Shown here in pieces: positions 8,413 to 55,991 of a stretch of DNA of 64,000 bases. The position numbers were made by a program, and so were the translations under genes. The DNA lies in the NCBI GenBank assembly GCA_021801565.1, contig JAJYXV010000003.1:132894-196893 (forward strand), given 5' to 3'. A model generated the notes under the pieces. It did not search any database and had not been told where the DNA came from. It was given only the letters and a program-made list of their open reading frames with translations. The first letter of the stretch is position 1, and the number at the start of each line of letters is the position of its first letter. The stretch comes from a bacterium (lineage in GTDB: Bacteria > Patescibacteriota > Minisyncoccia > UBA6257 > GWB1-50-10).

Positions 8413-8493
8413 TTCCGCATCCCGACTTATTTTATTTATGTGGGTGGGATTGACCGTCTGAGAGATAGCTGATATTGTATATAAGTAATTATT

Positions 8494-8931
8494 ATGGAAG
8501 ATTTTTCAACTATTGAAACACAAAAAATATATGATATTTCCTTCATTCAAAGAAGCGAGAATGTGGGTGTGGTGCGGCAGATTATAGAAAAATACGGAGG
8601 AGTTATATTAAATGAACATCCACTTGTAAAATTAAGACTTTCTTATCCAATTAAGAAAGAAACACAAGGATTTTTGGGTACAATTGAGTGTACGCTTCCA
8701 GCAGAATCAGTTCGTACTGTTTCTTCTGATGTAAAACTTGAGCATGATATTCTTCGTTTTATTGTGAATGTTCAAAACAAAATAAAGGAAGCCGCTCCGC
8801 GATCAAGTGAAGAGGGGGGATTACAACAGAGAAAAAAGAGAACAACCGTTCCACCGAAACCAAAGGGAGGATTTAACACAATACTTTCAAATGAGGCGTT
8901 ACAAGAAAAATTAGAAGAGATTCTTCAGTAA
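8494..8931 (+). CDS. rpsF: ribosomal protein bS6 (with C-terminal extension)
   Basis: YDISFIQRSE...IEKYGGVI...LRLSYPIKKETQGFLGTIE...KLEHDILRFIV aligns to the S6 pattern. The gene is followed by ssb and rpsR, the classic order. Confidence 0.68.
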   Translation: MEDFSTIETQKIYDISFIQRSENVGVVRQIIEKYGGVILNEHPLVKLRLSYPIKKETQGFLGTIECTLPAESVRTVSSDVKLEHDILRFIVNVQNKIKEAAPRSSEEGGLQQRKKRTTVPPKPKGGFNTILSNEALQEKLEEILQ

Positions 8932-8983
8932 TAATAAAAAGAAATTAGATAATAAAGGGTCGAAATATTCCATGCTTTAAAAA

Positions 8984-9445
8984 ATGAATTTAAATAAAGT
9001 TTTTATCTTTGGTAACCTCACTCGTGATCCAGAGCTCCGACAGACTCCGGGAGGACAATCTGTATGTACCTTGGGGGTCGCAACAAACTCTTTTTATGTT
9101 GACAAGTCAGGACAACGCCAACAACGAGCAGAATTCCATAATGTTGTTGTGTGGGGAAAACAAGCAGAAGTTGCTGGTCAATATCTTAAAAAAGGAGGGT
9201 CGGTATTGATAGAGGGAAGATTACAGACACGTTCATGGCAGGATAATCAGGGACAGGCGCGGAAGACAACCGAAATTATATGTGAAAGGATGCAACTTGG
9301 TCCGCGAGGAAGCGGTGCATCACATAAAGAATTCGATCGTGGAAATTTTCCTGATAACGAAGATCAGAGTGCACATATAAAAGAAGAGCTTCCGGAAATT
9401 AATATTGGAGAAGATGAAATAAAAGCAGAGGATATACCTTTTTAA
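8984..9445 (+). CDS. ssb: single-stranded DNA-binding protein
   Basis: An OB-fold N-terminus (NKVFIFGNLTRDPELRQTPGG...FHNVVVWGKQAE...LIEGRLQTRSWQD) is present. The acidic C-terminal tail ends in DIPF. Confidence 0.9.
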   Translation: MNLNKVFIFGNLTRDPELRQTPGGQSVCTLGVATNSFYVDKSGQRQQRAEFHNVVVWGKQAEVAGQYLKKGGSVLIEGRLQTRSWQDNQGQARKTTEIICERMQLGPRGSGASHKEFDRGNFPDNEDQSAHIKEELPEINIGEDEIKAEDIPF

Positions 9446-9529
9446 GTGTGCTGTCGGAAATAAAATTTTGATCCTATTGTACAATAAAAATGGGAATGGA
9501 GAATTGTGTAATTTATATATAACTAGAAT

Positions 9530-9730
9530 ATGCGACAATGTTTTTTTTGTTCACAAAATGTAAAGGAAATTGATTATCGTAATGTTGAGCTTTTGAAACG
9601 GTTTGTTTCGAGCCAGGCAAAGATAATTGATCCGCGACATACCGGAGTATGTGCGAAACATCAACGTCATCTCGCAAACTCGATAAAACGCGCGAGAATC
9701 GCAGGGTTACTTCCATTTGTTCGTCGATAG
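9530..9730 (+). CDS. rpsR: ribosomal protein bS18
   Basis: 66 aa. CFFC...IDYRNVELLKRFVS...GVCAKHQRHLANSIKRAR matches S18. Confidence 0.85.
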   Translation: MRQCFFCSQNVKEIDYRNVELLKRFVSSQAKIIDPRHTGVCAKHQRHLANSIKRARIAGLLPFVRR

Positions 9731-10304
9731 TACATACATTATATTTATGGCATTTGATAGTTTGCTCTTTGGAATTCTTCACAAATTTTTAGGAGTGTCG
9801 GGAATACTCGATGTTCTTATTGTTTTTCTTTCGAAATATCTTCCGTATATTGTGTGTGTTGCGGTTGTAATATTTCTCATACTCCACAAAAATGTTCGGG
9901 AGAAATTTTATATGTTTTTCTTTATTACTCTCTCGCTCATATTTTCTCGAGGAATCATCACGGAGGTAATCCGGTATTTTTATGCAAAGCCAAGGCCATT
10001 TGAATTTTTTGGGTTTCCTTCCCTTATTTCTGAAAGTGGACACGCATTTCCATCTGGACATGCCGCATTTTTCTTTGCACTTGCTTTTGCATTGTGGCTG
10101 TTTGATAAAAAATGGGGGAAATGGATTTTTATATTTGCAATTATAAACGGAGGTGCGCGTGTTGTTGCTGGGGTGCATTGGCCATTCGATATCATCGGAG
10201 GATTTGTTGTCGGAGGAATTTCGGTGTACCTTACCTATCTACTTCTTAGCCCATATAAACCAAAAAAGATAATAATTCAAGAAAGGTTAAATGCGAATGA
10301 ATAG
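9717..10304 (+). CDS. PAP2-family phosphatase (undecaprenyl-diphosphatase-like), polytopic membrane
   Basis: The PAP2 motifs KPRPF, PSGHAAFFFALA and HWPFDIIGG are present. Confidence 0.75.
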   Translation: MFVDSTYIIFMAFDSLLFGILHKFLGVSGILDVLIVFLSKYLPYIVCVAVVIFLILHKNVREKFYMFFFITLSLIFSRGIITEVIRYFYAKPRPFEFFGFPSLISESGHAFPSGHAAFFFALAFALWLFDKKWGKWIFIFAIINGGARVVAGVHWPFDIIGGFVVGGISVYLTYLLLSPYKPKKIIIQERLNANE

Positions 10305-10731
10305 ATTTATGCCATTGTGGATATTATTTTCAATTTTTTCGGCGGTGTTTGCCGCATTGGTGGCAATCTTAGGAAAGATTGGGATTGCGAACATTGATAC
10401 AACGCTTGCAACAACGGTTCGCGCAGTGGTAATGGCTCTTTTTCTTGTTTTTGTTTCTCTCGCGCTTGGAAAAGGGAGTTTTCTTTCTGCTATAGGAAGC
10501 AAACCCCTTCTCTTTATTGTACTTTCCGGGATTGCTGGAGCACTTTCGTGGCTTTTTTATTTTTTTGCCTTAAAAATAGGACCCGCTTCTGCAGTTGCCG
10601 CACTCGACCGGTTGAGTGTCGTATTTGTCCTTATTTTTGCACTTCTGTTCTTGGGAGAACAATTCACATTAAAATCAGGACTTGGAGCACTTTTTGTGAC
10701 TATAGGTGCAATACTTATGGTATTAAAATAA
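10291..10731 (+). CDS. small EamA/DMT-family membrane transporter (single EamA domain, 4 TM)
   Basis: 146 aa with four predicted TM helices and an EamA-like hydrophobic pattern. The start may be the downstream Met at 10309. Confidence 0.55.
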   Translation: MRMNRFMPLWILFSIFSAVFAALVAILGKIGIANIDTTLATTVRAVVMALFLVFVSLALGKGSFLSAIGSKPLLFIVLSGIAGALSWLFYFFALKIGPASAVAALDRLSVVFVLIFALLFLGEQFTLKSGLGALFVTIGAILMVLK

Positions 10732-10815
10732 TCCATTATTGCAGAATTTTTTTTGTGTGATATATTCGGTACATACCGTAATAAGGTCGTACGGTATTTT
10801 GAAAAATAATTTGTT

Positions 10816-11052
10816 ATGGCAAAAGTGATTATATATTCAACGCCGACATGTGTATTTTGCAAAATGGCAAAAACGTATTTTAACGAACATAATGTCCAGT
10901 TTGAAGACAAAAATGTAATGACTGATATCTCCGCACAAGAAGAAATGATTAAAAAGTCGGGTCAACTCGGAGTTCCGGTAATTGATATAGACGGGAAGAT
11001 TATTGTTGGTTTCGATAAACCGAAAATTTCATCTCTTTTAAATATAAAATAA
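10816..11052 (+). CDS. glutaredoxin-like protein (YruB/NrdH type)
   Basis: 78 aa with a CVFC active site near the N-terminus and a thioredoxin-fold pattern (GVPVIDIDGKIIVGFD). Confidence 0.8.
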   Translation: MAKVIIYSTPTCVFCKMAKTYFNEHNVQFEDKNVMTDISAQEEMIKKSGQLGVPVIDIDGKIIVGFDKPKISSLLNIK

Positions 11053-11145
11053 AATTTTATTCCCCGGCGATCTTTCGCTGGGGAAATTGGGGAGATGCCA
11101 ATGTAGCCCCGCCAGAGGCGGGCAAGTCAGTTGGTAGATTTACCC

Positions 11146-11217
11146 GCCGAAGTAGCTCAGTGGTAGAGCAATCGCTTCGTAAGCGATGGGTCGTGAGTTC
11201 AACTCTCACCTTCGGCT
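11146..11217 (+). tRNA. tRNA-Thr (anticodon CGT)
   Basis: Cloverleaf folded by hand. The acceptor stem is gccgaag/cttcggc, the D-arm gctc-agtggta-gagc, and the T-arm gtgag-ttcaact-ctcac. The anticodon loop ttCGTaa has stem atcgc/gcgat. Confidence 0.85.
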
Positions 11218-11312
11218 CAAAATATAATGGAATGGGAGGATATCTTTTCACTGTAGATAAGGGAGCGGAATAATCCACAATTGGAGAAATATATAAGGAG
11301 TATAATTAATAC

Positions 11313-11579
11313 ATGAGCAAAAAACTTCTTATTGCGACCATAGTTGCATTGGTTCTTCTTGCTGCGGGGTATTGGTATTGGAAAAGCACCTTACTTTCTC
11401 CTGAAGAGCAAGCACTTCAAAAAGCCGAAGAAAGTACAAAAACTATCACAGAAAGTGCCACACAAGGAGTGCTCCCGCCTTTGAATGTTCAATCAAATCC
11501 CGTCGGTAATCTTCCTGATACAAATCCGGTAAATAAAACAAATCTATTTTCGGACATTAAAACAAATCCATTTCGATAG
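11313..11579 (+). CDS. hypothetical small membrane-anchored/secreted protein
   Basis: 88 aa with an N-terminal hydrophobic helix. The call rests on the ORF and a good RBS context only. Confidence 0.4.
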   Translation: MSKKLLIATIVALVLLAAGYWYWKSTLLSPEEQALQKAEESTKTITESATQGVLPPLNVQSNPVGNLPDTNPVNKTNLFSDIKTNPFR

Positions 11580-11611
11580 GGGTCATTTTATTTATATCAA
11601 CAATAAATTAT

Positions 11612-13486
11612 ATGAAACATCAATATTTTTTAAGTATATGTGTGCTTGTGGTGGGTGTTGTGATTTCTACGTTTCTTATTTCAGATAAAGCCGCTGGGCA
11701 AACGGGAATAACTTCTGAGGGTAATGTAAATATTACATATCCAGTAGCAGAACTCGGCAATTGTGCAAATGAAACTGCTTGTCGCGCTTACTGTGATGAC
11801 GCGGCGCATTTGAACGCCTGTCTTACATTTGCCGAAAAAAACAAACTTATGTCGAGAGACGAACTTCAGACAGCGAAAAAATTTGCAAAAGTGGGAAAGG
11901 GTCCGGGGGGATGCACAACAAAAGAATCATGTGATCTCTATTGTGATGATGTTTCTCATATTAATGAATGTGTAACGTTCGCGGAACAGAATGATTTGAT
12001 GTCTCAAAATGAGCTTGCGGAGGCAAAAAAAGTACAAGCGGCTATTGCGAAAGGCGTGAAACCGCCAGCGTGTGGAGGGAAAGAAAAATGCGACAAGTAT
12101 TGCAGTGACCCGACGCATATGGAAGAATGCTTCGCTTTTGGGAAAGCTGCTGGTTTTATGAGTGATAAGGAAATTCAGGAATCGGAAAAAGTACTTACCG
12201 CAATAAAAAAAGGCGTGAAACCGCCTGCGTGTAATGGAAAAAAAGAATGTGATACATATTGCAGGGATACAGCACATATGGAAGAGTGTATGACATTTGC
12301 TCTCGCCGCAGGGTTTATGAGTAAGGAAGAAGCGGCAGATTCACAAAAGATGCTTCAAGCGATAAAAAAAGGTGTGAAACCACCTGCATGCAATGGGAAA
12401 GAGGAGTGTGAAAAATATTGTAATGAAGAAAGTCATATTGATGAATGTATTACATTTGCGGAGGCCGCAGGATTTATGAGGCCAGAGGAAGCGGAAATGG
12501 CGAGAAAAACTGGCGGAAAAGGACCTGGTGGATGTACGAACAAAGAAGAATGTGAAGCATTCTGTAATAATCCAACAAATCAGGAATTATGTTTTAGTTT
12601 TGGAAAAGATCATGGAATGATTCCAGAAGGAGAACTCCAAAAAATAGAAGAAGGGAAAAAACAATTTTCCGAGTCACTTCATCAGGCTCCTCCGGAAGTA
12701 CTTACTTGTATTTCAAGTGCAGTAGGGAACGATAATTTTGAAAAGTTAAGAGATGGTACTATGATGCCGTCGCGCGATTTGGGAGATAAAATGGGAGAAT
12801 GTTTTCGGCAGATGGGAGGAGGAACTGGTGCGCCAGGAGAAGGTGGGTTTATGCCACCAGCGGGACAATCAGGTCCTGGGGGATGTAAAACACCCGAAGA
12901 ATGTAAATCTTATTGTGCTACCAATCCTGAAGCGTGTAAAAATTTTGGATCGTTTCAAGGAGAAAATCGACGGGACGAAGGGGGATCCGGCAATTCGCAG
13001 GGCGTGCCAAGTGGCACAATAATACCGCCAGGGCAAAGTGGTCCCGGAGGATGCAGGACCGCGGAAGAATGTAGATCATTTTGCGAATCAAATCCGGAAG
13101 CATGCGCAAATTTCAGACCAAATATAGGACCGCAAAATGGAGAACTAAATGAAAAACGAGAAATCATACCTGGGGGACCGAATGGACGAATGGAACCGGG
13201 TGAACGAAGAGAAATAATGATACCAGATAAGTCTGAGACAATGGGGTTGGAAAACGGAGGAGTAATACAAAAGTTTTTTGAACAGATGCCGAAGTTTCCT
13301 CTGAATGCGGGAAATCCGCTCAATCCATGTCCACCTGGAGCGCAATGTGGTTCTGGACAAAATGTACCACAAGGTATCGCGCCACGATTGGAACCTGAAG
13401 GAAATTTTATGCCACCACAAGGTCAGCAGTCAATGCAGCAATTTCAACCTCCAATAAATATTTCACCACCTTCAACAAATAATTAG
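11612..13486 (+). CDS. secreted cysteine-rich tandem-repeat protein (about 8 copies of a ~50-aa C-x3-EC-x2-YC-x7-EC module) with a Pro/Gly/Gln-rich C-terminus
   Basis: An N-terminal signal/TM is followed by repeats CxxxxxCxxYCxDxxHxxECxTFAxxxxxMSxxExxxxxKxxxAIxKGVKPPA. The C-terminus carries GPGGC..EEC..C..NPEAC.NF variants. Confidence 0.7.
   Translation: MKHQYFLSICVLVVGVVISTFLISDKAAGQTGITSEGNVNITYPVAELGNCANETACRAYCDDAAHLNACLTFAEKNKLMSRDELQTAKKFAKVGKGPGGCTTKESCDLYCDDVSHINECVTFAEQNDLMSQNELAEAKKVQAAIAKGVKPPACGGKEKCDKYCSDPTHMEECFAFGKAAGFMSDKEIQESEKVLTAIKKGVKPPACNGKKECDTYCRDTAHMEECMTFALAAGFMSKEEAADSQKMLQAIKKGVKPPACNGKEECEKYCNEESHIDECITFAEAAGFMRPEEAEMARKTGGKGPGGCTNKEECEAFCNNPTNQELCFSFGKDHGMIPEGELQKIEEGKKQFSESLHQAPPEVLTCISSAVGNDNFEKLRDGTMMPSRDLGDKMGECFRQMGGGTGAPGEGGFMPPAGQSGPGGCKTPEECKSYCATNPEACKNFGSFQGENRRDEGGSGNSQGVPSGTIIPPGQSGPGGCRTAEECRSFCESNPEACANFRPNIGPQNGELNEKREIIPGGPNGRMEPGERREIMIPDKSETMGLENGGVIQKFFEQMPKFPLNAGNPLNPCPPGAQCGSGQNVPQGIAPRLEPEGNFMPPQGQQSMQQFQPPINISPPSTNN
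11762..12671 (+). repeat. tandem ~150-159-bp coding repeats inside the Cys-rich protein gene
   Basis: At nucleotide level, AAAGG(C/T)GTGAAACC(G/A)CC(A/T)GC(G/A)TG recurs at about 12049, 12213 and 12367. The same is visible as protein repeats. Confidence 0.65.
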
Positions 13487-13495
13487 ATTTGAGAT

Positions 13496-14103
13496 AATGA
13501 CCTCCTCCCCGGACTCCACTTTGTTGCGTCCGGGGTTTCCTTTTTTGGCATGAGGATTCAAAACAACTTGATGCGTTTTGGCATATCGTGTTTGCTTTGC
13601 CACTCAATGTATTTTTTGATCTGTGATTCATTGAGTCCAATGGTGGATGAAAAATATCCAACACTCCAGATGCCGTCCTTCTCAAGATAAATGTCTTTGA
13701 TATATCTAAACTTCTTTCTAAGCGCTAAGCTACTTGCTGATTTCAATTTCTGGACGGCATCTGATACTGCGATATTCGGCGGTATTTCAATTTGAATGTG
13801 TACATGATCATTATTTGCATTCATGGATTCAATCCAGAGTGTTGGATATTTCTTGCATGTTTCGGACAGACTTTTTTTCAATTCGGGAAGTACATACGAT
13901 TTGAGTATCTTCCGTCGATATTTTGTACCCCACACAATATGATATTGGTGTTGGTATGAAGAATGATTGAGATGTTGAATCCTCATGAGACTAGCCTACC
14001 ACAGCTACGCTGTGGTAGGTAAGCGGTTCCATTCATCCCCGCACTCCGAGAGCTCTATACAATGGATGACGCTCTCTTCGTGCGGGGTTTCCTGGTAATT
14101 AAA
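13496..14103 (-). mobile_element. IS200/IS605-family insertion sequence (tnpA only) with subterminal hairpin ends
   Basis: A Y1 transposase gene sits inside. The left hairpin is ccccggac-N13-gtccgggg (13508-13537) and the right hairpin is ccccgcac-N-gtgcgggg (14034-14077). Both ends recur as a tnpA-less copy at 24568-24747. Confidence 0.8.
13558..13986 (-). CDS. tnpA: IS200-like Y1 (HUH) transposase TnpA
   Basis: 142 aa. It carries YHIVWGTKYRR, the HUH motif HVHIQIEIPP and the catalytic Tyr region SVGYFSSTIG. Confidence 0.9.
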   Translation of the reverse strand: MRIQHLNHSSYQHQYHIVWGTKYRRKILKSYVLPELKKSLSETCKKYPTLWIESMNANNDHVHIQIEIPPNIAVSDAVQKLKSASSLALRKKFRYIKDIYLEKDGIWSVGYFSSTIGLNESQIKKYIEWQSKHDMPKRIKLF

Positions 14104-41605: not shown

Positions 41606-41786
41606 TCAAACAAGTCCAGATGTATGAAGTGGATAACTTACTTTACTTCTTTCCTGAAATACGCGAGGAATACAAAATATGGAAATAAAGGTCGAAATGC
41701 GCTAAAATTTATTAACAATTGAATAGCCTTAATATACATAAGGCAGGATCTAAACCATCGGAGTAATTCGGTAGCATGATCTAAAA

Positions 41787-41830
41787 ACGTTTCACAGTAT
41801 TAAGCTCCTCGTCAGAGCACTGTGAAACGT
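41787..41830. promoter_or_regulatory. 12-bp perfect inverted repeat ACGTTTCACAGT-N20-ACTGTGAAACGT in the divergent promoter region between the recombinase and protease genes
   Basis: Arms at 41787-41798 and 41819-41830, reverse complement checked. Confidence 0.5.
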
Positions 41831-41847
41831 CATACAGGGAAACTTGT

Positions 41848-42915
41848 ATGGGTGGAGAAATCCATCGCTGGCGGGGAGCTTTATGTTTTCCGCCAGAACA
41901 GAATCACGATGCGAATATGAATTTAAAGAGTATAAAGATAAACTCAAAAATTTTTATAGCAGGTGGAATAATTGTTCTTATATTACTTGGCATATTGGGC
42001 ACATTTGTTGTGATTGATAAATTTAGAAGTTATCAAAGAGAACAATCAGAAAAAAATGCGCAAGCAACAGAAAATCTTGCTTTGCAACAAAAAACGCTTG
42101 ATGAAGCAAGACAGGAAATCGAGAAACTCAAATCAGAAAATAAAAATATTGACCAAAAAATAGAGCAGAAATCAAATGAATTAAGCCGAGTAGTTGCCAA
42201 AGCAGTGCAGAATAATTCACAGCAGGGATCAGTGGAATCTACGATCCAGGCAAGTGAGATAAATCAGTACCTATCTGGCGTTGGAGAAATTATATGTTAT
42301 GGCGATGTACAGAAAAGTGGGAGCGCTTCGCTTTGGAAGTTTGGTAATGATGGCTATGTTTTAACGAACTACCATGTAATATCAGGTCCAGGAAATTGCA
42401 ATCTAACTATTGATGGTAATGGCGTGTATAAACTTGATAAAACGAGTGTCCGATCATGGAATTCCGCGACCGATGTTGCGGTGGTGAAAATAGCTCCCTT
42501 TGGAGAAATGGCAGATATTTCATCTCCAATATCAGAGTTGAATTACAGCATTTCATATTTAAAGGAGTGTCCGGCAAAAATGCCACTTGGTTCTCCAGTT
42601 ATAGCTATAGGATTTCCGGCATATTCCAGAACCACAACCATGATTAATGGAGTGGCGAGCAGCCACTCTCAACGGACAATTACAAATGGCATTATCAGTG
42701 CGTACGATGATTCGGTTCAAATGCCAATAGGTAGTTTACCTAACGTAAATTATTTTGTTTCAGCAAAAATAGATAGTGGTAACTCCGGAGGTATTACTTT
42801 TTCTAAAAATGAAAACGGTCTTTGTCTTTTGGGCATCCCAACATGGTTATCACTTGGAAAATTTGAAGCAGGAGGTCTCATACAGAATATTTTTAATGTT
42901 TTATACGAGAAATGA
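41848..42915 (+). CDS. membrane-anchored trypsin-like (S1 family) serine protease with a coiled-coil linker
   Basis: A TM helix and a coiled coil are followed by the catalytic His (LTNYHVISG), Asp (DVAVVKIA) and Ser (GNSGGITF). The likely true start is MNLKSIK (41917). Confidence 0.6.
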   Translation: MGGEIHRWRGALCFPPEQNHDANMNLKSIKINSKIFIAGGIIVLILLGILGTFVVIDKFRSYQREQSEKNAQATENLALQQKTLDEARQEIEKLKSENKNIDQKIEQKSNELSRVVAKAVQNNSQQGSVESTIQASEINQYLSGVGEIICYGDVQKSGSASLWKFGNDGYVLTNYHVISGPGNCNLTIDGNGVYKLDKTSVRSWNSATDVAVVKIAPFGEMADISSPISELNYSISYLKECPAKMPLGSPVIAIGFPAYSRTTTMINGVASSHSQRTITNGIISAYDDSVQMPIGSLPNVNYFVSAKIDSGNSGGITFSKNENGLCLLGIPTWLSLGKFEAGGLIQNIFNVLYEK

Positions 42916-46102: not shown

Positions 46103-46138
46103 CTTGCCCTGAGTATACCGAAGGGAATCCCTGTCCGG

Positions 46139-46178
46139 CAGCACGAGTCGGTGCAGTATCGAGTGAGAATGGAGAGCG
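46139..46178 (+). repeat. 40-bp direct repeat copy A (CAGCACGAGTCGGTGCAGTATCGAGTGAGAATGGAGAGCG)
   Basis: Identical to 47101-47140. It is related (21/26) to the sequence immediately 3' of tRNA-Gln (37661-37686). Confidence 0.85.
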
Positions 46179-46275
46179 TCATTGTAAGCGACTCTCGTCT
46201 CGTGGTTCAAGGCAACCAAGACCCATACCCTTTTCCTAGAAATCGAACTAAAATTAAAAATTATATTTAGGAATT

Positions 46276-47058
46276 ATGAATTTAGCCGTTTTATTTTGGT
46301 TTTATAAAGAGCCAGAAGTTTGCGAAAACAGATTACAGCTTATTAAGAAATATAATTCTAATCTAAAAATTTATGGACTTTTTGGTGGCGAGCTCTCGGA
46401 TACTGAAATATATAAAGAAAAACTAGGAAGATATTTGGATGATTTTTATGTGTTTGATTCAAATAAAAATGTTGACTGGAAATGGATTAATGGTGATTTG
46501 ATGATTTTGGATTGGTATAACGAAAAGGGCAGAAATTTAAACTGGGATAGTATTGTCGTCGTCCAATGGGATATGCTTATTTTTGACTCTTTATTAGATC
46601 AATTTTCTGGAATAAATAAGAACCAAATTTATCTGTCTGGATTAAGGAACTTGGATAAAGAAATTGAAAACGAATGGGATTGGACGAAACCGGGTGAAAA
46701 AGAAAGGCAAAATTATCTAAATTTTCTGAAGTATGTAAAAAAGAATTACGGATATGCAGACGATCCACCTCTTTGCAGCTTGTTTATTCTTCAGGTTTTT
46801 CCAAAAATATTTTTTGAAAAATATCTGACGGTAAAAAATAAGGAAATTGGCATGCTTGAATATAAAATTCCAATTTATGCCAAAATATTCAGAATTCCAT
46901 TTTATAAAAAAGATTTGGGTACCCGATGGAACGATGATCCAAAACCTCTAAATGCAATACCGGAAGAAATTTCGAGTGACTACATTAAAGAGGAACTTAT
47001 CAAAAAAGACGGTTGGAGAATTTTCCATCCTTATTATAAAATTTGGCTAAATTTCTAA
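46276..47058 (+). CDS. hypothetical protein (Trp/Tyr/Lys-rich), single-gene cassette between 40-bp direct repeats
   Basis: 260-aa ORF. No motif recognised. Confidence 0.4.
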   Translation: MNLAVLFWFYKEPEVCENRLQLIKKYNSNLKIYGLFGGELSDTEIYKEKLGRYLDDFYVFDSNKNVDWKWINGDLMILDWYNEKGRNLNWDSIVVVQWDMLIFDSLLDQFSGINKNQIYLSGLRNLDKEIENEWDWTKPGEKERQNYLNFLKYVKKNYGYADDPPLCSLFILQVFPKIFFEKYLTVKNKEIGMLEYKIPIYAKIFRIPFYKKDLGTRWNDDPKPLNAIPEEISSDYIKEELIKKDGWRIFHPYYKIWLNF

Positions 47059-47100
47059 GCGGGGTTTGAACCTACCACGGGTTTTAACTCGAGAGTCGGC

Positions 47101-47140
47101 CAGCACGAGTCGGTGCAGTATCGAGTGAGAATGGAGAGCG
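47101..47140 (+). repeat. 40-bp direct repeat copy B
   Basis: Identical to 46139-46178. Confidence 0.85.
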
Positions 47141-47243
47141 AAGTTTTGAGCCAGGGCTCTCTTATTATCAGCTCTAAACGTTTGAGATCTATAACCTTTC
47201 TTGGATAAACAAAAACCACTCAAGTGATAAGTACTTAAGTGGT

Positions 47244-47954: not shown

Positions 47955-48389
47955 ATGGATCTAGAAGTAAACATACAAGATACGATTTTGAATATCAGAG
48001 TTGCAATTTTGATTAAAACGAAAAATGGTTTTGTGCTCGAAAAAAGTCCGAACGGATATTTTTATTTTATTGGGGGAAGAATAAGAATAAATGAAACCTC
48101 AGAAGAAACCGCGAAAAGAGAAATTCTTGAAGAGATGAGCATTAAAATTGAAAAATTAACATTTAAAACCATCATCGAAAACTTTTTTATATCAAAAGAG
48201 AATCAGTCTATTCATGAAATCTGCTTTGTTTACATAGCCGATGATGAATTAGAAATACATGATTTAATGCCAGGTCACGTAGAATGTCCGAGTGCCGATT
48301 TTAGAAACATGGATATTAGGCCAAAAGTTATAAAAGATTATATTTTGAATAACGACAATAGATCACATGTCATTTTTAAGGATTTTTGA
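47955..48389 (+). CDS. NUDIX hydrolase
   Basis: The Nudix box GGRIRINETSEETAKREILEEMSI is present. Confidence 0.6.
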   Translation: MDLEVNIQDTILNIRVAILIKTKNGFVLEKSPNGYFYFIGGRIRINETSEETAKREILEEMSIKIEKLTFKTIIENFFISKENQSIHEICFVYIADDELEIHDLMPGHVECPSADFRNMDIRPKVIKDYILNNDNRSHVIFKDF

Positions 48390-48470
48390 TGGCTCTTGTC
48401 GCATTGTTTTGGTGCGTTTAATATATCACTCGAATATTTTGGTCTATTTTCTCTCTGGCCTCTAAAAATT

Positions 48471-49136
48471 ATGAAAAAAATAAAAGATCTAGATGAAAAT
48501 TTTATAGGTTGGATTAAAACTCAATTAGGCAAAAATCTTGTTATAAGGAAAGAAAAATATGGAGATCAAAGCGAGGTTTATTGTATTAATACACCTCGCG
48601 GCAGTTATTTTTTGAAAATTGCCGAAAATCTTGAAACTGAGTGTAAAAAACTAAAATGGTTAAACGGAAGACTTCCCATTCCTGAGGTAATCAAATTTGA
48701 ACACATTGGGGATAAAGACGTTTTGTTACTCTCGGCAGTTGAAGGAAAAAATCTTGCGGAACTTAAAAAAGAATGGCCGGCGGAAAAGGTTGTAAGTATA
48801 CTTGCTAAAGTTTTATTTCAATTTCACACTATTTCGACAAAAGATTGTCCTTTTGGAAGTCAAGGAAAGGGAAAAGTATTAGTGCATGGAGATGCATGCC
48901 TTCCTAATTTTATATTCAAAGACGATGTGTTTTCTGGCTATATAGATTTGGGAGACATGCGGATAGATACCCCTCATATAGATCTTTCTGCTGCGGTGTG
49001 GAGTTTGCAATATAACCTCGGTTCCGGATTTGGTTTAAATTTTTTAGAAAAATATGGAGTAAAAAACGCCACAGAGGAATTGGTGGAGAAATTAAGATTA
49101 CAATATGAAGAAACGCAAAAAGAGTGGGGATTATGA
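48471..49136 (+). CDS. aminoglycoside-phosphotransferase (APH)-family kinase-like protein
   Basis: The Brenner motif VHGDACLPNFIF and IDLGDMRIDTPHIDLSAAVWSL are present. The layout resembles APH(3'). Confidence 0.6.
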   Translation: MKKIKDLDENFIGWIKTQLGKNLVIRKEKYGDQSEVYCINTPRGSYFLKIAENLETECKKLKWLNGRLPIPEVIKFEHIGDKDVLLLSAVEGKNLAELKKEWPAEKVVSILAKVLFQFHTISTKDCPFGSQGKGKVLVHGDACLPNFIFKDDVFSGYIDLGDMRIDTPHIDLSAAVWSLQYNLGSGFGLNFLEKYGVKNATEELVEKLRLQYEETQKEWGL

Positions 49137-49212
49137 AAACGCGCGTTATTCATATTGATTGGCTTGTTTTTCGTTTTTCCCTTATAATTTCTATATTGTA
49201 ATTATTATATTT

Positions 49213-49659
49213 ATGACAACAATTTTAATCGGTGTTTTAGGTGCGGTAATTAGTGCTATGACGGGAACTCTTTGGTATTCTGGTTTGACCCCGATGGGGA
49301 AATGGCATATGCAGTATCTCGGATTTGATAAATTGTCGGAAGAAGAAAAGAAAAAAATAATTGCGAAAGCGAAGCCAAAAATGTGGAAGAGTTACTTGGC
49401 GCAAATAATTCTTTCTTTTTTAACATCATTCTTTATCGCCTTTGTGGCAAGCTATACTGTCAAAAATGGGGGACAAGCCAGTGCGGTTTTTTATTATGTC
49501 ATCATGATCTGGGTCGCTTTTACAATGCCAATGATTGGACAAAATATTCTCTGGGGTAAATCCGAAGGCGGTCTTGCATGGAAAAGATTTTTCTCAGATA
49601 GTTTTTACAATTTGATTACCTTTCTCATTATCGCAGTTGTGGCGATCTTAATAATTTAA
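49213..49659 (+). CDS. hypothetical membrane protein
   Basis: 3-4 TM helices. The ORF may start at 49159. Confidence 0.35.
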   Translation: MTTILIGVLGAVISAMTGTLWYSGLTPMGKWHMQYLGFDKLSEEEKKKIIAKAKPKMWKSYLAQIILSFLTSFFIAFVASYTVKNGGQASAVFYYVIMIWVAFTMPMIGQNILWGKSEGGLAWKRFFSDSFYNLITFLIIAVVAILII

Positions 49660-49712
49660 ATTCAAAAATATGCTCATATGGAGCTTTTTAATTTTCATAT
49701 ATTTTAATTTTC

Positions 49713-50012
49713 ATGAAAATTAAGCTTAAGCGGGATAAGTTCAAAAAGACTCGCGGCGGTTCTTCGCGACTATTAGCGGTAAAGTGCGAGAAATGCGACG
49801 AACTACTTTGTTATTATCAAAAAGACGGATCGGGATTGCTCAAGCGCATGTATATCGACCGAATCGCAAAAATATATACGGATATCGATAAAAAGTTGGC
49901 GTGCCATAAATGCGGTCACATCCTTGGCATGCGTTATATTTATGAAAAAGAAAAACGCCCGGCATTTAAGCTCTTCAAGGGATCTGTAAAAAAGAAAATA
50001 GTCAAAACCTGA
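49713..50012 (+). CDS. zinc-ribbon protein (CxxC...CxxC)
   Basis: CEKCDE...CHKCGH are present. Confidence 0.35.
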   Translation: MKIKLKRDKFKKTRGGSSRLLAVKCEKCDELLCYYQKDGSGLLKRMYIDRIAKIYTDIDKKLACHKCGHILGMRYIYEKEKRPAFKLFKGSVKKKIVKT

Positions 50013-50037
50013 TTCAAATTTAAATATAATTTAATTT

Positions 50038-51645
50038 ATGAAACGGATTTATAGGGGGATTGTTGTATATGGTGCCCCGGGAACCGGCAAGACCACATTG
50101 GCGAAATCTATTGTCTATAATTTTTCCAATGCAAAGTATGTTGAGGCATCAAGTTTGGTTGTTTATCCCGCCTCAACACTTCAGAAGCTTCCTGTAAAAG
50201 AAAACGGATTTATCCAGGTAATTTGGAAAATTTATAAAAAACCGATTAATAAATATTTTTCCCGAGAAAATGCACGGGATTTTTTCACGTATCTTAAGAA
50301 TAAATATTCTTCTTCGGTGATTGCGAAAACAATCATTTATTTACACAAAAGAGATTTCTCAAAGAAATTTCTTATCGTGGCGGGGATACGCGGATATCGA
50401 AATTCTCTCTACTTTAAGAAAAATGGATATTTCGTTCTTTATCTGAAGGCACCAAATAAACAAATCACAAAGAGATTGGCGAAACGAGAAAATTTTTCTC
50501 GAAAATTTGCAGAAAAAGAACGAGAAATCGAAGAACGACTTTTTTCCACAAATAAGGTAGAAAAAATTGCGCATCTCTCGTTCAATACTGCTGTTACTAC
50601 AGAGAGGGAAATTATTTCACAATTGAAGGCACTTGTGGAGATACAAGAATGCAAACAATGCATAAATTCAAGCGCTAATTTATCATATTCCATCGGAAAG
50701 CTTGGTTTGTGCGAGGTGTGTGAAAAATATAAATTCTATTTTAGTAAAAAATCTCTTGAACAAGAATTAAAACTTTTCCTGTCCTTAAAAAAGAGTGGAA
50801 AAGGAAAATATGATGCAATGGTGGGTATCTCTGGTGGAAAAGACAGCACAGCGATGCTCTACGAGGTGAAAAAAATGGGTTTTACTCCTCTCGCGTTTTC
50901 ATTGGATTCTGGATACTATCCGAGGCACATATCAAAAAGAGCGAGGCAAGTTGCCAAACAATTGGGTGTTGATTATGAAAAAATTGATGCGAGAAAATAT
51001 ATTCGTCCTGCTGATCGCGCAAGTTTTCAAAACACAGCTGATTTATATAACGAACGCGAATCTCCCGAATTGAAAGAAAAGTTTCGAAAATGGTACACAG
51101 AAGGACGAAGACATTATTCCATAAAGTGTGAACATCGCATTCCTTTCATCCGGACGTGTCAGTTGTGCAGGCGTGTGATTATCCGGTCGTATTATGGAGA
51201 AGCGTTACGGCATGGTGTGCGAGTGGTGGTTCTTGGAATTAACGAGTGGGCGGGACTTAGCCAAAATAGTGAATCTAAAAAATTTGTTTTTTCTGCAATA
51301 AGAAAATTACAACCATTTAAGAATAAACCCGCGGTGCATGTGGTGCATCTTCCATTCCTTCTTCAGAGAAAAATCGGAGATACAAAAAAGATTTTGAAAA
51401 AACTTGGGTGGAAAATTCCTCGAGGAGAAGATCTGGTGGAATCAAATTCTAATTCCTGTCTTTTTGCCCGTGCTGCGGAAAGCAAGGCGCGGAGAATGCT
51501 CGGATTTCATCCCGATGCAACCCGTCTCGCAAGAGAGGTAACAGTTGGATTTATCACAAAAAACCAAGCGCGCAAGGCATTGGAAAAAACGCATAATTAT
51601 AAGTATTCTGTGAAAGAAGTTTTGAAAAAAGCAAAAGTAATTTAA
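50038..51645 (+). CDS. fusion protein: N-terminal P-loop NTPase/kinase-like domain + Cys pairs + PP-loop (SGGKDS) ATP pyrophosphatase domain (TtcA/TtuA-like)
   Basis: VVYGAPGTGKTTLAKS is the Walker A. CKQC...CEVCEKY are the Cys pairs. GISGGKDSTAML is the PP-loop. C-terminal CEHRIPFIRTCQLCRR is also present. Confidence 0.6.
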   Translation: MKRIYRGIVVYGAPGTGKTTLAKSIVYNFSNAKYVEASSLVVYPASTLQKLPVKENGFIQVIWKIYKKPINKYFSRENARDFFTYLKNKYSSSVIAKTIIYLHKRDFSKKFLIVAGIRGYRNSLYFKKNGYFVLYLKAPNKQITKRLAKRENFSRKFAEKEREIEERLFSTNKVEKIAHLSFNTAVTTEREIISQLKALVEIQECKQCINSSANLSYSIGKLGLCEVCEKYKFYFSKKSLEQELKLFLSLKKSGKGKYDAMVGISGGKDSTAMLYEVKKMGFTPLAFSLDSGYYPRHISKRARQVAKQLGVDYEKIDARKYIRPADRASFQNTADLYNERESPELKEKFRKWYTEGRRHYSIKCEHRIPFIRTCQLCRRVIIRSYYGEALRHGVRVVVLGINEWAGLSQNSESKKFVFSAIRKLQPFKNKPAVHVVHLPFLLQRKIGDTKKILKKLGWKIPRGEDLVESNSNSCLFARAAESKARRMLGFHPDATRLAREVTVGFITKNQARKALEKTHNYKYSVKEVLKKAKVI

Positions 51646-51793
51646 ATTTTGTGGGGTGTGATAGGATATGTATATGTATAAAGAAGTTACTGCAGAATAT
51701 TGGCGTAAATATTTAGGATTACCGGAAAACTACCAGGTTGGGTGGCAGTTTCCGAATTGCTGGATTTACAATAAATTATTTATCTAAAAATTT

Positions 51794-52297
51794 ATGCATT
51801 TTTACGCTTTTGCGATTGTAAATATAGATGAGTCCATGAGAAAAAGAATTCCTGAAATCATGGAAGAAAGGGATAGGGAGACGAAGAGAATGGATAACGA
51901 ATTTGAAAAAATGACCTTTGATGAAATTTTGGATTCTCACGAAAAGAGAAAACCAAATGGATATGAGAAGTTATTATATGCACTGAAACAAAAAGTAAAA
52001 AAACCACTTGATAAATATTGCGCATATGGAAACACTGAAGACGAGAATAGAAAATTTGATAGTTGGGTATTGATGGATGTTTTTACTCCCAGCCGTCTTA
52101 TGAATGACACTGAAATGCTCAACGATCTCTTTCCTCAAGCAATAATGAATTCAGATTGCAGTTGGATTGAAAGTGAATGGAGTGAGAATGACGAGGAAAA
52201 CGAAAGACTGACATTAAAATGGGACAAGTTCGTGAAAAAAACTCTTGAGGAGAACAGGGAAAAAAGCGTTGTCTTGTTAATTCATTGCGATTCTTAG
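51794..52297 (+). CDS. hypothetical acidic protein
   Basis: 167-aa ORF. Confidence 0.3.
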   Translation: MHFYAFAIVNIDESMRKRIPEIMEERDRETKRMDNEFEKMTFDEILDSHEKRKPNGYEKLLYALKQKVKKPLDKYCAYGNTEDENRKFDSWVLMDVFTPSRLMNDTEMLNDLFPQAIMNSDCSWIESEWSENDEENERLTLKWDKFVKKTLEENREKSVVLLIHCDS

Positions 52298-52324
52298 GGG
52301 AAGATTATAATACTAGAAAATTTT

Positions 52325-53182
52325 ATGGAACAAAAAATAAAAAAAGGAAGAATTATAGCTTTTGACTTTGACGGGACCATTGCGAAATATAATGGGTTTG
52401 TATCACATCATGATGTTCAGGAGCCGATAGAAGAAACAATAAAAGCAATGCGTTTACTGAAAGAAAAAGGATTTAGGATTCTTATATATACAACGCGAGG
52501 AAATGAATTTGTTAAAAAATACTGTGAAGATTTTTCAATTCCTGTTGATTTTATTAACCATAATCCTGAAATGCAGGGAGAAAATCCAGGGAAGCCAATT
52601 GCATATGTATATGTAGACGATAGTGTTATCAGATATACAGGACAATCAGCAGAAGCCTTGGTATCAGAAGTCGAAAATTTCAGGGCACATTGGAAGGTCC
52701 CGATTAAAAAAAATATGTCTGACGAAAAATTAAAAGCAATATGTGAGCATTTAAACTATGAGTTTTGGATGTTTTTTGAATTAGCTAGAATACAGTCAGG
52801 GAGGGGATTTTCAACAAACGAACAGATTAAGAACGCATTGCTCGAATCTTTTATTATTCACTTTCGCAATGTAGTTGATTTTTTATATTCCCCAAATAAT
52901 TTAAAGTCCGACGATGTTTCTGCAAATCAATTTTTTGATGACCAAAATAATTGGCCTAAAATACGCCTCCCCCTTAGTCCAAGAATACGGGATGCGAGGA
53001 GTCGCATTGGAAAGGAAGTGGCTCATCTCACCTACACTCGCTTATTGATACCGCATAATAAAAAATCTTGGCCGTTTCTCTTATTAGCCCAAGACGTACA
53101 GAAAGTATGGGTACAATTTCTTAAGGTAGTTCCATCATCAAGACTTAATCAAAAATTGATGAAAGCAAGAGACAGTGTTTGA
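52325..53182 (+). CDS. HAD-superfamily hydrolase domain protein with a C-terminal domain of unknown function
   Basis: HAD motif I IIAFDFDGTIAKY is present near the N-terminus. Confidence 0.5.
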   Translation: MEQKIKKGRIIAFDFDGTIAKYNGFVSHHDVQEPIEETIKAMRLLKEKGFRILIYTTRGNEFVKKYCEDFSIPVDFINHNPEMQGENPGKPIAYVYVDDSVIRYTGQSAEALVSEVENFRAHWKVPIKKNMSDEKLKAICEHLNYEFWMFFELARIQSGRGFSTNEQIKNALLESFIIHFRNVVDFLYSPNNLKSDDVSANQFFDDQNNWPKIRLPLSPRIRDARSRIGKEVAHLTYTRLLIPHNKKSWPFLLLAQDVQKVWVQFLKVVPSSRLNQKLMKARDSV

Positions 53183-53245
53183 TAGAATATATGCCGAATA
53201 TGCGGTAGTTGATGTTTAGGTCGAATATAAAATATAATTTAATTT

Positions 53246-53809
53246 ATGAAAGAAATTGAAATTCTTGTTGATGTATTGGAATCAAAAGAAAGTGCGCTTA
53301 AAAAACTTGAGCAGTTTCATTTTGTTGGGAAAAAGAGTGTTTTGGATATTTATTTTTCTGATCCATTACGGATAAATCTTCAGCCAGATAAAGAAGGAAG
53401 ATTAAACAATTGTTTTCGCGTGCGCACGAAAGATGAGAAAACTTCCATTGCATATAAAGTTGATCATTTCACCGAGAAAGGGGAATGGACATATTCTGAT
53501 GAGCACGAAACTGAGGTGGGTGATTTCGAGATCATTCGAAAAATCATTGAACATTTGGGATTTGAAATACTTCTACAGATAGATAATGAAAAGAATACTT
53601 ATATCACGGATGATTATGAAGTTGTTCTTGAAGATGTAAAAGATTTAGGAATTTTCTTGGAAGTTGAGAGATTGAAAGTAGATGATACGGAAGATATTTC
53701 CGAGGTTAAAAAAGAAATTTGGAATTTTATTCAAACGACAAAAATTAAAGTAGGGAAAGAATTAAATGCCGGAAAACCTGAATTAATGCTAAAGAAAAAG
53801 CTTTTATAG
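53246..53809 (+). CDS. CYTH-domain protein (class IV adenylate cyclase / triphosphate tunnel family)
   Basis: MKEIEILVDV (EIE start motif), CFRVRTK, TYKVDH and FLEVE acidic patches match the CYTH pattern. Confidence 0.55.
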   Translation: MKEIEILVDVLESKESALKKLEQFHFVGKKSVLDIYFSDPLRINLQPDKEGRLNNCFRVRTKDEKTSIAYKVDHFTEKGEWTYSDEHETEVGDFEIIRKIIEHLGFEILLQIDNEKNTYITDDYEVVLEDVKDLGIFLEVERLKVDDTEDISEVKKEIWNFIQTTKIKVGKELNAGKPELMLKKKLL

Positions 53810-53875
53810 AAAACTACCTGATGTAATACAAAAACCCCGATGTGAAATCGGGTTTTTTTGTTATTTCATATTTTT

Positions 53876-54598: not shown

Positions 54599-55231
54599 AT
54601 GAAAAAAAAGTTGCTATCTATTTCTCTTATCCTTTCTTTTATTATTTATGCCGCGTATGAACGCATAACCGGACTTAGTGCATTATCCGTGGCGATAAAT
54701 AGAGAAAGCAAAAAAAATAATGTACCGATAGCTGATTCGACGTATATACCTACAACGCCGGTTATTCAACCACATCGTGTTCCTAGTGAAGACGACTATG
54801 AAGATGATGATGGATTTTTTGGTTCGCTTTTTGGCAAAAAAATTCCTTCTCCAACAAAACCTCCGGTACAAACAAGTCAACCAAAACCCGCCACTCCGAC
54901 ACCGGTTTCTCAGCCGACGCCTACCACCCCGACCGCCAACCCTGGTCTCTATCGCAGTGGGGAATATATCGGTTCGGTTGCTGATGCATATTATGGTAAC
55001 GTACAGGTAAAAGTTGTCGTTTCAGGTGGAAAAATTGCTGATGTACAATTTTTGAATTATCCGCAGGACAGAAATAACTCAATCCGGATTAATACTTATG
55101 CGATGCCGATTTTAACATCAGAGGCAATTCAAGCGCAGAATGCAAATGTTGATGCGGTTTCCGGTGCAACGGCAACAAGTGCAGCATTCAACGAATCGCT
55201 TGCATTCGCACTTGCTCAAGCAAAAAATTAA
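54599..55231 (+). CDS. extracytoplasmic FMN-binding domain protein (FMN_bind, RnfG/NqrC/PplA-like) with a Pro/Thr-rich linker
   Basis: An N-terminal TM/signal and a PTKPPVQTSQPKPATPTPVSQPTPTTP linker are present. The FMN_bind core is YGNVQVKVVVSGGKIADV...DAVSGATATS, whose Thr is the flavinylation site. Confidence 0.7.
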   Translation: MKKKLLSISLILSFIIYAAYERITGLSALSVAINRESKKNNVPIADSTYIPTTPVIQPHRVPSEDDYEDDDGFFGSLFGKKIPSPTKPPVQTSQPKPATPTPVSQPTPTTPTANPGLYRSGEYIGSVADAYYGNVQVKVVVSGGKIADVQFLNYPQDRNNSIRINTYAMPILTSEAIQAQNANVDAVSGATATSAAFNESLAFALAQAKN

Positions 55232-55232
55232 A

Positions 55233-55991
55233 ATGAAAAAAATCCAACTTATCATGGGCATGCCGATCATTGTGGAAATAGACGATCGTGAGGCATCATC
55301 CGAACTTTTTAATGAAGTCTTTTCATATTTTGTCTCTGTAGATGAAAAATTTAGTACATATAAAGAAACAAGCGAGATTAGTGCCATAAATCGCGGGGAG
55401 CTTAAAGAAGAGATGTGGAGCAACGACATGAAAGAAATTTTTGCTCTTTCCGAAGAAACAAAACGATTGACTGGCGGCTATTTTGATATAGTAACGCGGA
55501 ATGGCACGTATGATCCTTCCGGCCTTGTAAAGGGATGGGCAATTTTGAAAGCGGCGAATATTTTGCGTAGTCATGGAGTGAAGAATTTTTATATTGAAGC
55601 CGGTGGAGATATAGAAACAAGCGGCAAAAACACAGAAGGGAATTCGTGGTATATTGGCATCCAAAATCCATTCAATAAAAAAAGAGAAGTGGTAAAAACA
55701 GTATATTTACGCAATAAAGGAATTGCTACTTCAGGCACCTACCTCCGCGGTCAGCATATTTATAATCCAAATGATAAAAACAAACCACTGAAAGATGTGC
55801 TGAGTTTAACCGTTATTGGACCAAATGTATACGAAGCTGATCGTTTTGCCACTGCGGCATTTGCCATGGAAAACGCGGGTATTGAATTTATTGAAAGACT
55901 TGAAGGATTTGAAGGGTATCAAATCAACCATGACGGAAATGCTATAATGACGAGCGGATTTGCCAATTATATTTCCAATTCATATGTTTAA
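55233..55991 (+). CDS. FAD:protein FMN transferase (ApbE family)
   Basis: FDIVTRNGTYDPSGLVKGWAI, YIEAGGDI and the GIATSGTYLRG ApbE motifs are present. The start is taken at MKKIQLIMGMP. Confidence 0.85.
   Translation: MKKIQLIMGMPIIVEIDDREASSELFNEVFSYFVSVDEKFSTYKETSEISAINRGELKEEMWSNDMKEIFALSEETKRLTGGYFDIVTRNGTYDPSGLVKGWAILKAANILRSHGVKNFYIEAGGDIETSGKNTEGNSWYIGIQNPFNKKREVVKTVYLRNKGIATSGTYLRGQHIYNPNDKNKPLKDVLSLTVIGPNVYEADRFATAAFAMENAGIEFIERLEGFEGYQINHDGNAIMTSGFANYISNSYV

Follow-up and report, generated by a model that had tools for sequence, protein, structure and literature searches.

A kinase-PP-loop fusion protein from Patescibacteriota as a candidate enzyme of purine nucleotide salvage

The 64,000-nt stretch analysed here (the window; contig JAJYXV010000003.1 of assembly GCA_021801565.1, a member of the Patescibacteriota) encodes a 535-amino-acid fusion protein, g5, the fifth of eight co-directional genes (g1 to g8), which joins a P-loop kinase domain to a Zn-ribbon and a PP-loop ATP-pyrophosphatase module. 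The g5 gene by itself, as opposed to the array in which it lies, is probably the meaningful feature, encoding a two-module enzyme of nucleotide salvage or interconversion. We give a probability of about one half to the reading that g5 acts on a free purine nucleotide at the inosine monophosphate (IMP) node, adenylating one of its carbonyls and putting nitrogen or sulfur in place of the oxygen. We show the domain anatomy of the protein, the conservation of its family, its association with partner enzymes in other lineages, and the non-conservation of the surrounding array.

In the proposed mechanism, the C-terminal module, which is of the N-acetyl-sugar amidotransferase (NASAT) lineage and combines the Zn-ribbon, the PP-loop and a putative three-cysteine metal site, would use ATP to adenylate a carbonyl oxygen of the nucleotide, with IMP, xanthosine monophosphate (XMP) or their ring-open precursor as candidate substrates. 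Ammonia would most likely displace the activated oxygen in an amide-to-amidine conversion of the type catalyzed by NASAT and GMP synthase, yielding AMP from IMP or GMP from XMP; alternatively, sulfur from a TtuA-type Fe-S site might displace it, giving a thiopurine nucleotide. The N-terminal adenylate-kinase-like domain could then phosphorylate the nucleoside monophosphate formed as product or by-product, or else a nucleoside precursor. In other lineages, the substrate might be supplied by a fused or coupled IMP cyclohydrolase and elsewhere possibly by a phosphoribosyltransferase, by pyrophosphatases of the Ham1, Maf, Nudix or HD type, or by a nucleoside phosphorylase. We favour a free nucleotide as candidate substrate because members of the family are recurrently coupled to enzymes yielding nucleoside monophosphates, above all IMP. 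Amination is slightly favoured over sulfur transfer on three grounds, namely the nature of the closest relatives, a conservation that looks housekeeping-like, and a partner domain resembling adenylate kinases. A more specific proposal is that the family represents a one-protein, ATP-dependent aminase that converts IMP to AMP or XMP to GMP and bypasses adenylosuccinate synthetase and lyase, with the kinase domain converting AMP to ADP and with IMP cyclohydrolase, phosphoribosyltransferase or NTP pyrophosphatases feeding IMP; this version is speculative, and we consider it rather unlikely to hold in full.

The domains and motifs of g5 are as follows, residue invariance being judged in an alignment of 16 homologues:

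50038-51645, + strand: g5, fusion protein of 535 amino acids (kinase, Zn-ribbon and PP-loop)
50038-50637, + strand: N-terminal P-loop kinase domain, residues 1-200, with AAA_18, AAA_17, SKI and cytidylate-kinase-like matches
50071-50097, + strand: Walker A motif GAPGTGKTT, residues G12-T20
50638-51645, + strand: ATP-pyrophosphatase (PP-loop) module, residues ~201-535
50650-50721, + strand: tetracysteine Zn-ribbon C205-x2-C208...G223-x-C225-x2-C228, all five residues invariant
50830-50847, + strand: PP-loop motif SGGKDS, residues 265-270, invariant
51157-51168, + strand: C374-Q-L-C377, the first two cysteines of the triad, invariant across the family
51457-51459, + strand: C474, the third cysteine of the triad, invariant

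The AlphaFold2 (AF2) model of g5 has a mean confidence (pLDDT) of 88.6. In the kinase domain, G12, P14, G17, K18, E36, R76, R118, R146, E165 and T171 are invariant. Its profile matches include the adenylate kinases AK9 and AK6 and the AdkA-like protein SSO1041, mainly through the P-loop, and a Foldseek search likewise placed it nearest to SSO1041 (3H0K, TMt 0.77); the AAA_18 score of 26.8 bits lies below the cutoff of 29.4. Further motifs invariant in the alignment of 16 homologues include GRxHYSxKCxH, RTCQLCRR, NEW, ESNSNSC and FHPDxTRLxREVT. C374 and C377 align with a CxxC pair in NASAT-like relatives and with the cluster-binding CSVC of a TtuA-like protein, and C474 aligns with the cysteine of the 'HxDC' segment in NASAT-like relatives. 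C364 and H366 were considered as a fourth ligand and rejected, as neither is universal in the family, and none of the aligned members contains a CxxC pair beyond C474.

By sequence and fold, the C-terminal module is closest to sugar amidotransferases. Foldseek retrieved the Legionella NASAT structure 8WEX (LpNASAT) as best match (E 5.5e-10), followed by TtuA, LarE, NMN/NAD synthetases and GMP synthase. The WbuX model TIGR03573 matched residues 203-337 (E 1e-18), covering positions 2-142 of the 344 in the profile and scoring 68 bits against a cutoff of 203.2. The TtuA model (cutoff 450) reached 21 bits and the TtcA model (cutoff 272) 17 bits, and QueC was marginal. NASAT proteins are recognized by the signature CxxC...[GN]xCxxC together with a PP-loop, and the tetracysteine binds zinc in LpNASAT (PMC10607449). 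Like WbuX, WbpG, PseA and LpNASAT, g5 has this Zn-ribbon at the N-terminal end of the module, followed by SGGKDS, and in a wider alignment the homology with NASAT-like proteins spans the whole PP-loop module. However, the g5 family differs from NASAT in an insert of its own (residues ~330-370), in the C-terminal half of the module, and in being fused to a kinase or, in other members, to IMP cyclohydrolase; unlike for NASAT, no glycan-biosynthesis family is found among the 25 commonest families of 132 neighbouring genes. The cysteine triad of g5 is missing from LpNASAT and from a Campylobacter PseA-like protein, whereas most of the NASAT-like relatives retrieved carry it. The neighbours of these triad-bearing relatives encode DegT aminotransferases, hexapeptide acyltransferases, radical-SAM enzymes and glycosyltransferases. 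A triad is accordingly in keeping with amidotransfer, which weakens its use as proof of sulfur transfer.

In the reaction of GMP synthase, also a PP-loop enzyme, a free purine nucleoside monophosphate is adenylated at a ring carbonyl and ammonia takes the place of the oxygen; the ATP-pyrophosphatase domain of this enzyme (GuaA/GuaAb) is the most likely functional model for g5. GuaA structures are among the fold matches; in contrast to GMP synthase, g5 lacks a dimerisation domain and a glutaminase partner and possesses the Zn-ribbon and the cysteine triad. Judged by the respective family models, g5 is a member of neither NASAT, TtuA/TtcA, QueC nor GuaA, and the g5 family forms a branch of its own within the NASAT-like PP-loop lineage, with fusion partners and a genomic context that are both new. 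The first-pass annotation, made from the sequence of the window, had described a fusion of a kinase-like domain with a TtcA/TtuA-like PP-loop. The Walker A motif, SGGKDS and the cysteine pairs are all present as described, and the affiliation needs to be revised, since the PP-loop module is nearest to NASAT/WbuX. Its remark that the fusion was unusual holds, and the protein represents an uncharacterised family.

More than 120 full-length homologues of g5 were found, with amino acid identities of 47-87%. An exhaustive HMMER scan with the PP-loop module yielded 46 representatives (50% clusters) at E<=1e-30, followed by a steep fall to NASAT-like and other PP-loop proteins, and the family thus delimited is a compact, strongly conserved unit of bacteria of the candidate phyla radiation (CPR) as well as DPANN archaea. 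The best homologues come from Patescibacteria. CPR members belong to Sungiibacteriota, Harrison-, Yanofsky-, Vogel-, Lloyd- and Uhrbacteria, Paceibacterota, Saccharibacteria and Absconditabacterales, and DPANN members to Woese-, Pace-, Nano-, Micr- and Parvarchaeota; copies in actinomycetes are rare, and the viral contigs of IMG/VR contain only distant PP-loop proteins and no member of the family. Members are named AAA family ATPase, shikimate kinase, QueC or TilS/uridine kinase in the databases, and a literature search for the family, for a link between IMP cyclohydrolase and PP-loop proteins, or for purine salvage in CPR bacteria retrieved nothing relevant. A kinase domain is attached to 130 of 178 complete PP-loop modules, and ~40 modules are standalone or adjoin another partner gene. 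In a neighbour-joining tree, the forms linked to IMP cyclohydrolase constitute one clade nested among the kinase-fused forms, and standalone forms are scattered; this interleaving of partner-swapped forms suggests a single core activity with interchangeable partners.

The main one of these partners is IMP cyclohydrolase. In four family members (P0134, P0136, P0140 and L016), the PP-loop module is fused not to the kinase but to a genuine IMP cyclohydrolase domain, corresponding to residues 1-196 of PurH (E 1e-57 to 1e-61), and in four further cases an IMP cyclohydrolase gene lies directly upstream of the family gene, mostly overlapping it (L015, L018/L105, L027 and L059). The upstream genes of L015, L018 and L027 had been considered as split kinases until BLAST identified them as IMP cyclohydrolase genes. 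In two additional loci (L100 and L101), IMP cyclohydrolase precedes kinase-PP-loop fusions, which indicates that all three modules can act together. IMP cyclohydrolase is enriched at the position immediately preceding the family gene (p = 2e-5).

Other salvage and house-cleaning enzymes are also encoded beside the PP-loop module. A phosphoribosyltransferase gene overlaps the PP-loop gene in a Woesearchaeote (L024), a Saccharibacterium (L020) has the gene order HD, PP-loop, Ham1 XTP/dITPase, and a Maf gene lies 19 nt downstream in a Sungiibacteriote (L003). In L059, HAD, HD, IMP cyclohydrolase, PP-loop and two Nudix genes form an array. The family gene adjoins genes for S-adenosylmethionine (SAM) methyltransferases in L074 and L079 and has a MOSC gene in its vicinity in L060. 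In Streptomyces thermocoprophilus (L022), a uridine-kinase-like gene overlaps a standalone PP-loop gene inside a pSAM2-type integrative element. In this region (5315-13570), a DDE transposase gene precedes the pair, a gene for a pSAM2-type RepSA replication initiator follows it, and a DUF4231 membrane protein is encoded nearby. The location in an integrative element suggests that the pair of PP-loop and uridine-kinase-like genes has spread horizontally outside CPR and DPANN.

Several further arrangements of the family were recorded. Tandem PP-loop enzymes occur in Nanoarchaeia (L019 7038-9542 and L071 206-2710), where the family gene is immediately preceded by an NcsA/TtuA-like one (ATP_bind_3 domain plus C-terminal zinc ribbon). 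One member of 878 amino acids (P0159) is a triple fusion of an APH/protein-kinase-fold domain (TCAD9 match), an AAA_18 kinase and the PP-loop module; a link of its N-terminal domain to the APH-fold kinase g2 of the window was dismissed as weak, as the two are not similar. In an archaeon (L102/L103 5001-7007, on contigs of at most 873 kb), a standalone IMP cyclohydrolase gene is followed by genes for a 265-aa protein and a dNK-like P-loop kinase, with an intein-containing PolB downstream, which may represent a parallel module of IMP cyclohydrolase, unassigned enzyme and kinase. The 265-aa protein of L102 has an ExExK-like start, and its assignment to CYTH was rejected after Pfam, the PDB and a BLAST comparison with g8 gave no match. 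In Micromonosporaceae (L026 8010-9000, also L076 and L077), the PP-loop homologue is split over two frames at ~8311-8324, which could reflect pseudogene formation, a frameshift or one assembly error common to all three assemblies.

A number of observations weigh against a purine nucleotide as substrate. A link to IMP cyclohydrolase is seen in no more than about a quarter of the loci, many loci lack an informative neighbour, and Nudix genes are not found beside the family gene above background (Fisher p ~0.17-0.2). The median isoelectric point (pI) of the PP-loop module is 9.9 among 178 members, as is typical of RNA-binding enzymes. The cysteine triad is TtuA-like and thereby points to [4Fe-4S]-dependent tRNA thiolases, an NcsA-like gene lies directly upstream in one lineage, and NifS, NifU and ferredoxin genes lie upstream in another. 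A pyrimidine substrate is also possible, because of the uridine-kinase-like partner and the cytidylate-kinase-like matches of the kinase domain.

Several of these points would be explained if g5 were a tRNA or rRNA thiolase of the TtuA/TtcA/NcsA kind, with a [4Fe-4S] cluster on the triad passing sulfur to an adenylated RNA base and with the kinase-like domain serving as an RNA-binding or regulatory extension as in Kti12 or PSTK. The [4Fe-4S] tRNA thiolases TtuA, TtcA and NcsA are typified by a three-cysteine motif, and they have in common with g5 the PP-loop, a zinc finger at the N-terminal end and, at corresponding positions, a CxxC...C triad. These thiolases are second-tier fold matches, TtuA, LarE and MnmA being among the proteins retrieved, the protein is very basic, and the kinase domain has weak KTI12 matches. 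Because of the basic module, the TtuA-like triad, the adjacent NcsA-like gene (L019/L071) and the NifS-NifU genes upstream in L055, RNA thiolation remains the main competitor of the nucleotide reading. We nevertheless judge it improbable, given the very low scores with the TtuA and TtcA models reported above, which are also at odds with the option raised by the first-pass annotation that the fusion might map cleanly onto a known tRNA thiolase. Furthermore, g5 lacks the C-terminal zinc finger of TtuA and has 'GINEW' in place of the GHxxDD-type segment of TtuA, its nearest relatives are sugar amidotransferases, and the fusion or coupling to IMP cyclohydrolase, phosphoribosyltransferase, Ham1 and Maf, which points to free nucleotides, has no rationale for an RNA substrate.

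If sulfur transfer is combined with a free nucleotide, g5 might be a thiopurine-nucleotide synthase, turning, say, IMP or GMP into its 6-thio form in the manner of YcfA and producing an antimetabolite or a sulfur-bearing intermediate. YcfA, a PP-loop (AANH) enzyme of 6-thioguanine biosynthesis, adenylates O6 of a free guanine nucleotide and acts on GTP (PMC12494993), and it thereby provides a precedent for the thiolation of such nucleotides. The co-occurrence of purine-nucleotide partners with a TtuA-like triad, the SAM methyltransferases of L074 and L079, the MOSC gene near the family gene in L060 and the NifS-NifU genes of L055 are all consistent with this function. On the other hand, identities of 47-87% over many CPR and DPANN lineages fit a housekeeping role and not toxin production, and the triad is also present in NASAT-like proteins of amino-sugar clusters. 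YcfA adds L-cysteine and depends on the pyridoxal 5'-phosphate (PLP)-dependent lyase YcfC, whereas neither a PLP-dependent C-S lyase nor a sulfur-carrier protein recurs among the 132 neighbours of the g5 family; in addition, no specific similarity between g5 and YcfA was detected. Taken together, a thiopurine product seems a little less probable even than an RNA substrate.

The arrangement of IMP cyclohydrolase and PP-loop module also resembles PurH, in which the IMP cyclohydrolase domain precedes that of 5-aminoimidazole-4-carboxamide ribonucleotide (AICAR) transformylase. In about ten loci of the family, IMP cyclohydrolase precedes a second catalytic module in the same manner, fused or overlapping, and the g5 module could accordingly be a folate-independent stand-in for the AICAR transformylase half of PurH that supplies formyl-AICAR to the coupled cyclohydrolase. 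The Pfam models MGS and AICARFT_IMPCHas score above their cutoffs in the sequences linked to IMP cyclohydrolase, and the fused sequences contain Lys, Tyr, Asp and Lys residues that would correspond to the catalytic residues of human ATIC. However, the second module is a PP-loop enzyme and not a folate-dependent transformylase, most members of the family have no adjacent IMP cyclohydrolase, and g5 of the window carries a kinase in its place. PP-loop enzymes are not known to activate formate, and the upstream purine pathway needed as a source of AICAR would be missing from most CPR bacteria and DPANN archaea. We therefore regard this role as distinctly improbable.

The gene array in which g5 is embedded consists of the following features:

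47955-48389, + strand: g1, Nudix hydrolase with intact Nudix box (PF00293 NUDIX, 36.8 bits, cutoff 21.1)
48396-49136, + strand: g2, APH-fold kinase (Pfam APH, 65 bits)
49159-49659, + strand: g3, DUF1761 membrane protein (family scan)
49713-50012, + strand: g4, Zn-ribbon protein of 99 amino acids with two CxxC pairs and weak RIG-I-CTD/Yippee-type matches
51674-51787, + strand: short open reading frame (ORF) in the gap between g5 and g6, remnant of a DeoD-like purine-nucleoside phosphorylase, homologous in its first 22 codons only (51674-51739)
51794-52297, + strand: g6, acidic protein of 167 amino acids, pI 4.9, without family match
52325-53182, + strand: g7, N-terminal HAD phosphatase domain (~130 residues) followed by ~150 residues without match (family scan)
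53246-53809, + strand: g8, CYTH/CyaB-like protein (TIGR00318, 76 bits, cutoff 58)
53836-53852, no strand assigned: bidirectional terminator-like hairpin closing the array, the only clear one at its 3' end

All eight ORFs are present on the + strand at the positions first annotated, with the domains then assigned to them, and the intergenic gaps from g1 to g8 of 6, 22, 53, 25, 148, 27 and 63 nt bear out the short spacing that had been described. For g2 and g3, the annotated TTG starts were assigned mechanically, and translation may in fact begin further downstream. With the APH(3') NCBIfam model, g2 scores 128.6 bits, below the cutoff of 205. For g6, neither family scans (including PADLOC) nor a fold search with a single-sequence AF2 model (pLDDT 70) gave a match, and the C-terminal half of g7 is without family match in the scans. 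Co-transcription of the eight genes is possible, because the only clear terminator-like hairpin is placed after the array; long co-directional arrays are usual in such genomes.

This array is not conserved in relatives. When the window neighbours were compared by tblastn with 49 loci encoding g5 relatives, and by tblastx with the closest relatives, neither search showed the array to be conserved, and the former matched only one Nudix and one membrane protein. The fusion gene of L050 (87% identical protein) is flanked by GGACT, GIY-YIG and MFS genes, and that of L062 (86% identical, on a 283-kb contig) lies in the order GIY-YIG, fusion, DeoD-like phosphorylase, g6 homologue and MFS. The genes that follow the array in the window (g10-g12) are found upstream of the fusion gene in L062. 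Relatives of 74% and 72% identity have a HAD_2 hydrolase gene 3' and NifS-NifU-ferredoxin-reductase genes 5' of the fusion gene, respectively. The only neighbour kept near g5 is g6, and in L062 only, where a homologue with 69% identity (7426-7923) lies two genes downstream of the fusion; none of g3, g4, g7 and g8 is conserved beside the family gene in the relatives compared. A Nudix gene directly follows the family gene in L006, L059 and L061 and lies within two genes of it on the downstream side in L013, and g1 is a local neighbour and not a conserved partner. HAD_2 genes located 3' of the fusion gene in L001/L053 and L007 belong to a subfamily other than that of g7.

The 22 codons of the phosphorylase remnant between g5 and g6 share 91% amino acid identity with the start of a PNP_UDP_1 protein that is intact in L062 (6637-7404), and the DNA flanks of the remnant align with L062 on either side of a ~670-bp deletion. 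Together with the shuffled neighbours, the remnant indicates that the region is undergoing rearrangement. Two ORFs downstream of the array (54599-55231 and 55140-55991), which overlap by ~90 nt, are syntenic with L062 2233-3128, located on the opposite side of the fusion gene there.

The first-pass annotation had interpreted the eight genes as one functional cluster, in which a signalling or defence-related nucleotide might be made or turned over, and had proposed to examine the neighbourhood in CPR genomes. The close spacing of the co-directional genes, the lone terminator behind them, the several products that handle phosphates or nucleotides and the similar mixture of gene types (HAD, HD and Nudix) surrounding the L059 PP-loop gene would fit such a system. 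In contrast, the orthologues are not clustered in relatives, and even the loci encoding 86-87% identical proteins have other neighbours. PADLOC gave no specific match, only generic ones at the P-loop or Nudix level, the family is absent from viral contigs, and the phosphorylase remnant shows that the region is being reshuffled. A pathway or defence system of eight genes is consequently the least credible of the explanations considered and very unlikely, and the cluster hypothesis is largely refuted; the seven other genes are a lineage-specific co-directional neighbourhood and no pathway, although some of them handle nucleotides. The earlier interpretation is nonetheless partly supported, in that nucleotide-derived chemistry is still the best reading of g5, now through IMP cyclohydrolase and the salvage-enzyme partners of other family members.

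Two further features of the window lie upstream of the array. A full-length Rfam LOOT RNA motif (RF03000) is located at 41747-41866 on the + strand (88 bits, gathering score 46). A 57-nt direct repeat (46133-46189 and 47095-47151; 88% identical, no Rfam match) flanks a gene for a 260-aa protein (46276-47058).

CPR bacteria and DPANN archaea rely on scavenged nucleotides, and the way in which so small a gene set keeps their purine pools in balance is poorly understood. The g5 family is sharply bounded, highly conserved and unannotated, and it is physically linked with IMP cyclohydrolase as well as with various unrelated enzymes of nucleotide salvage and house-cleaning. This provides a concrete enzyme candidate together with a short, testable list of substrates. 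If the proposed reading is true, the direct amination of IMP or XMP, or their thiolation, would represent a new step of purine metabolism and a new activity of the PP-loop superfamily, and the annotation of hundreds of proteins would be corrected.

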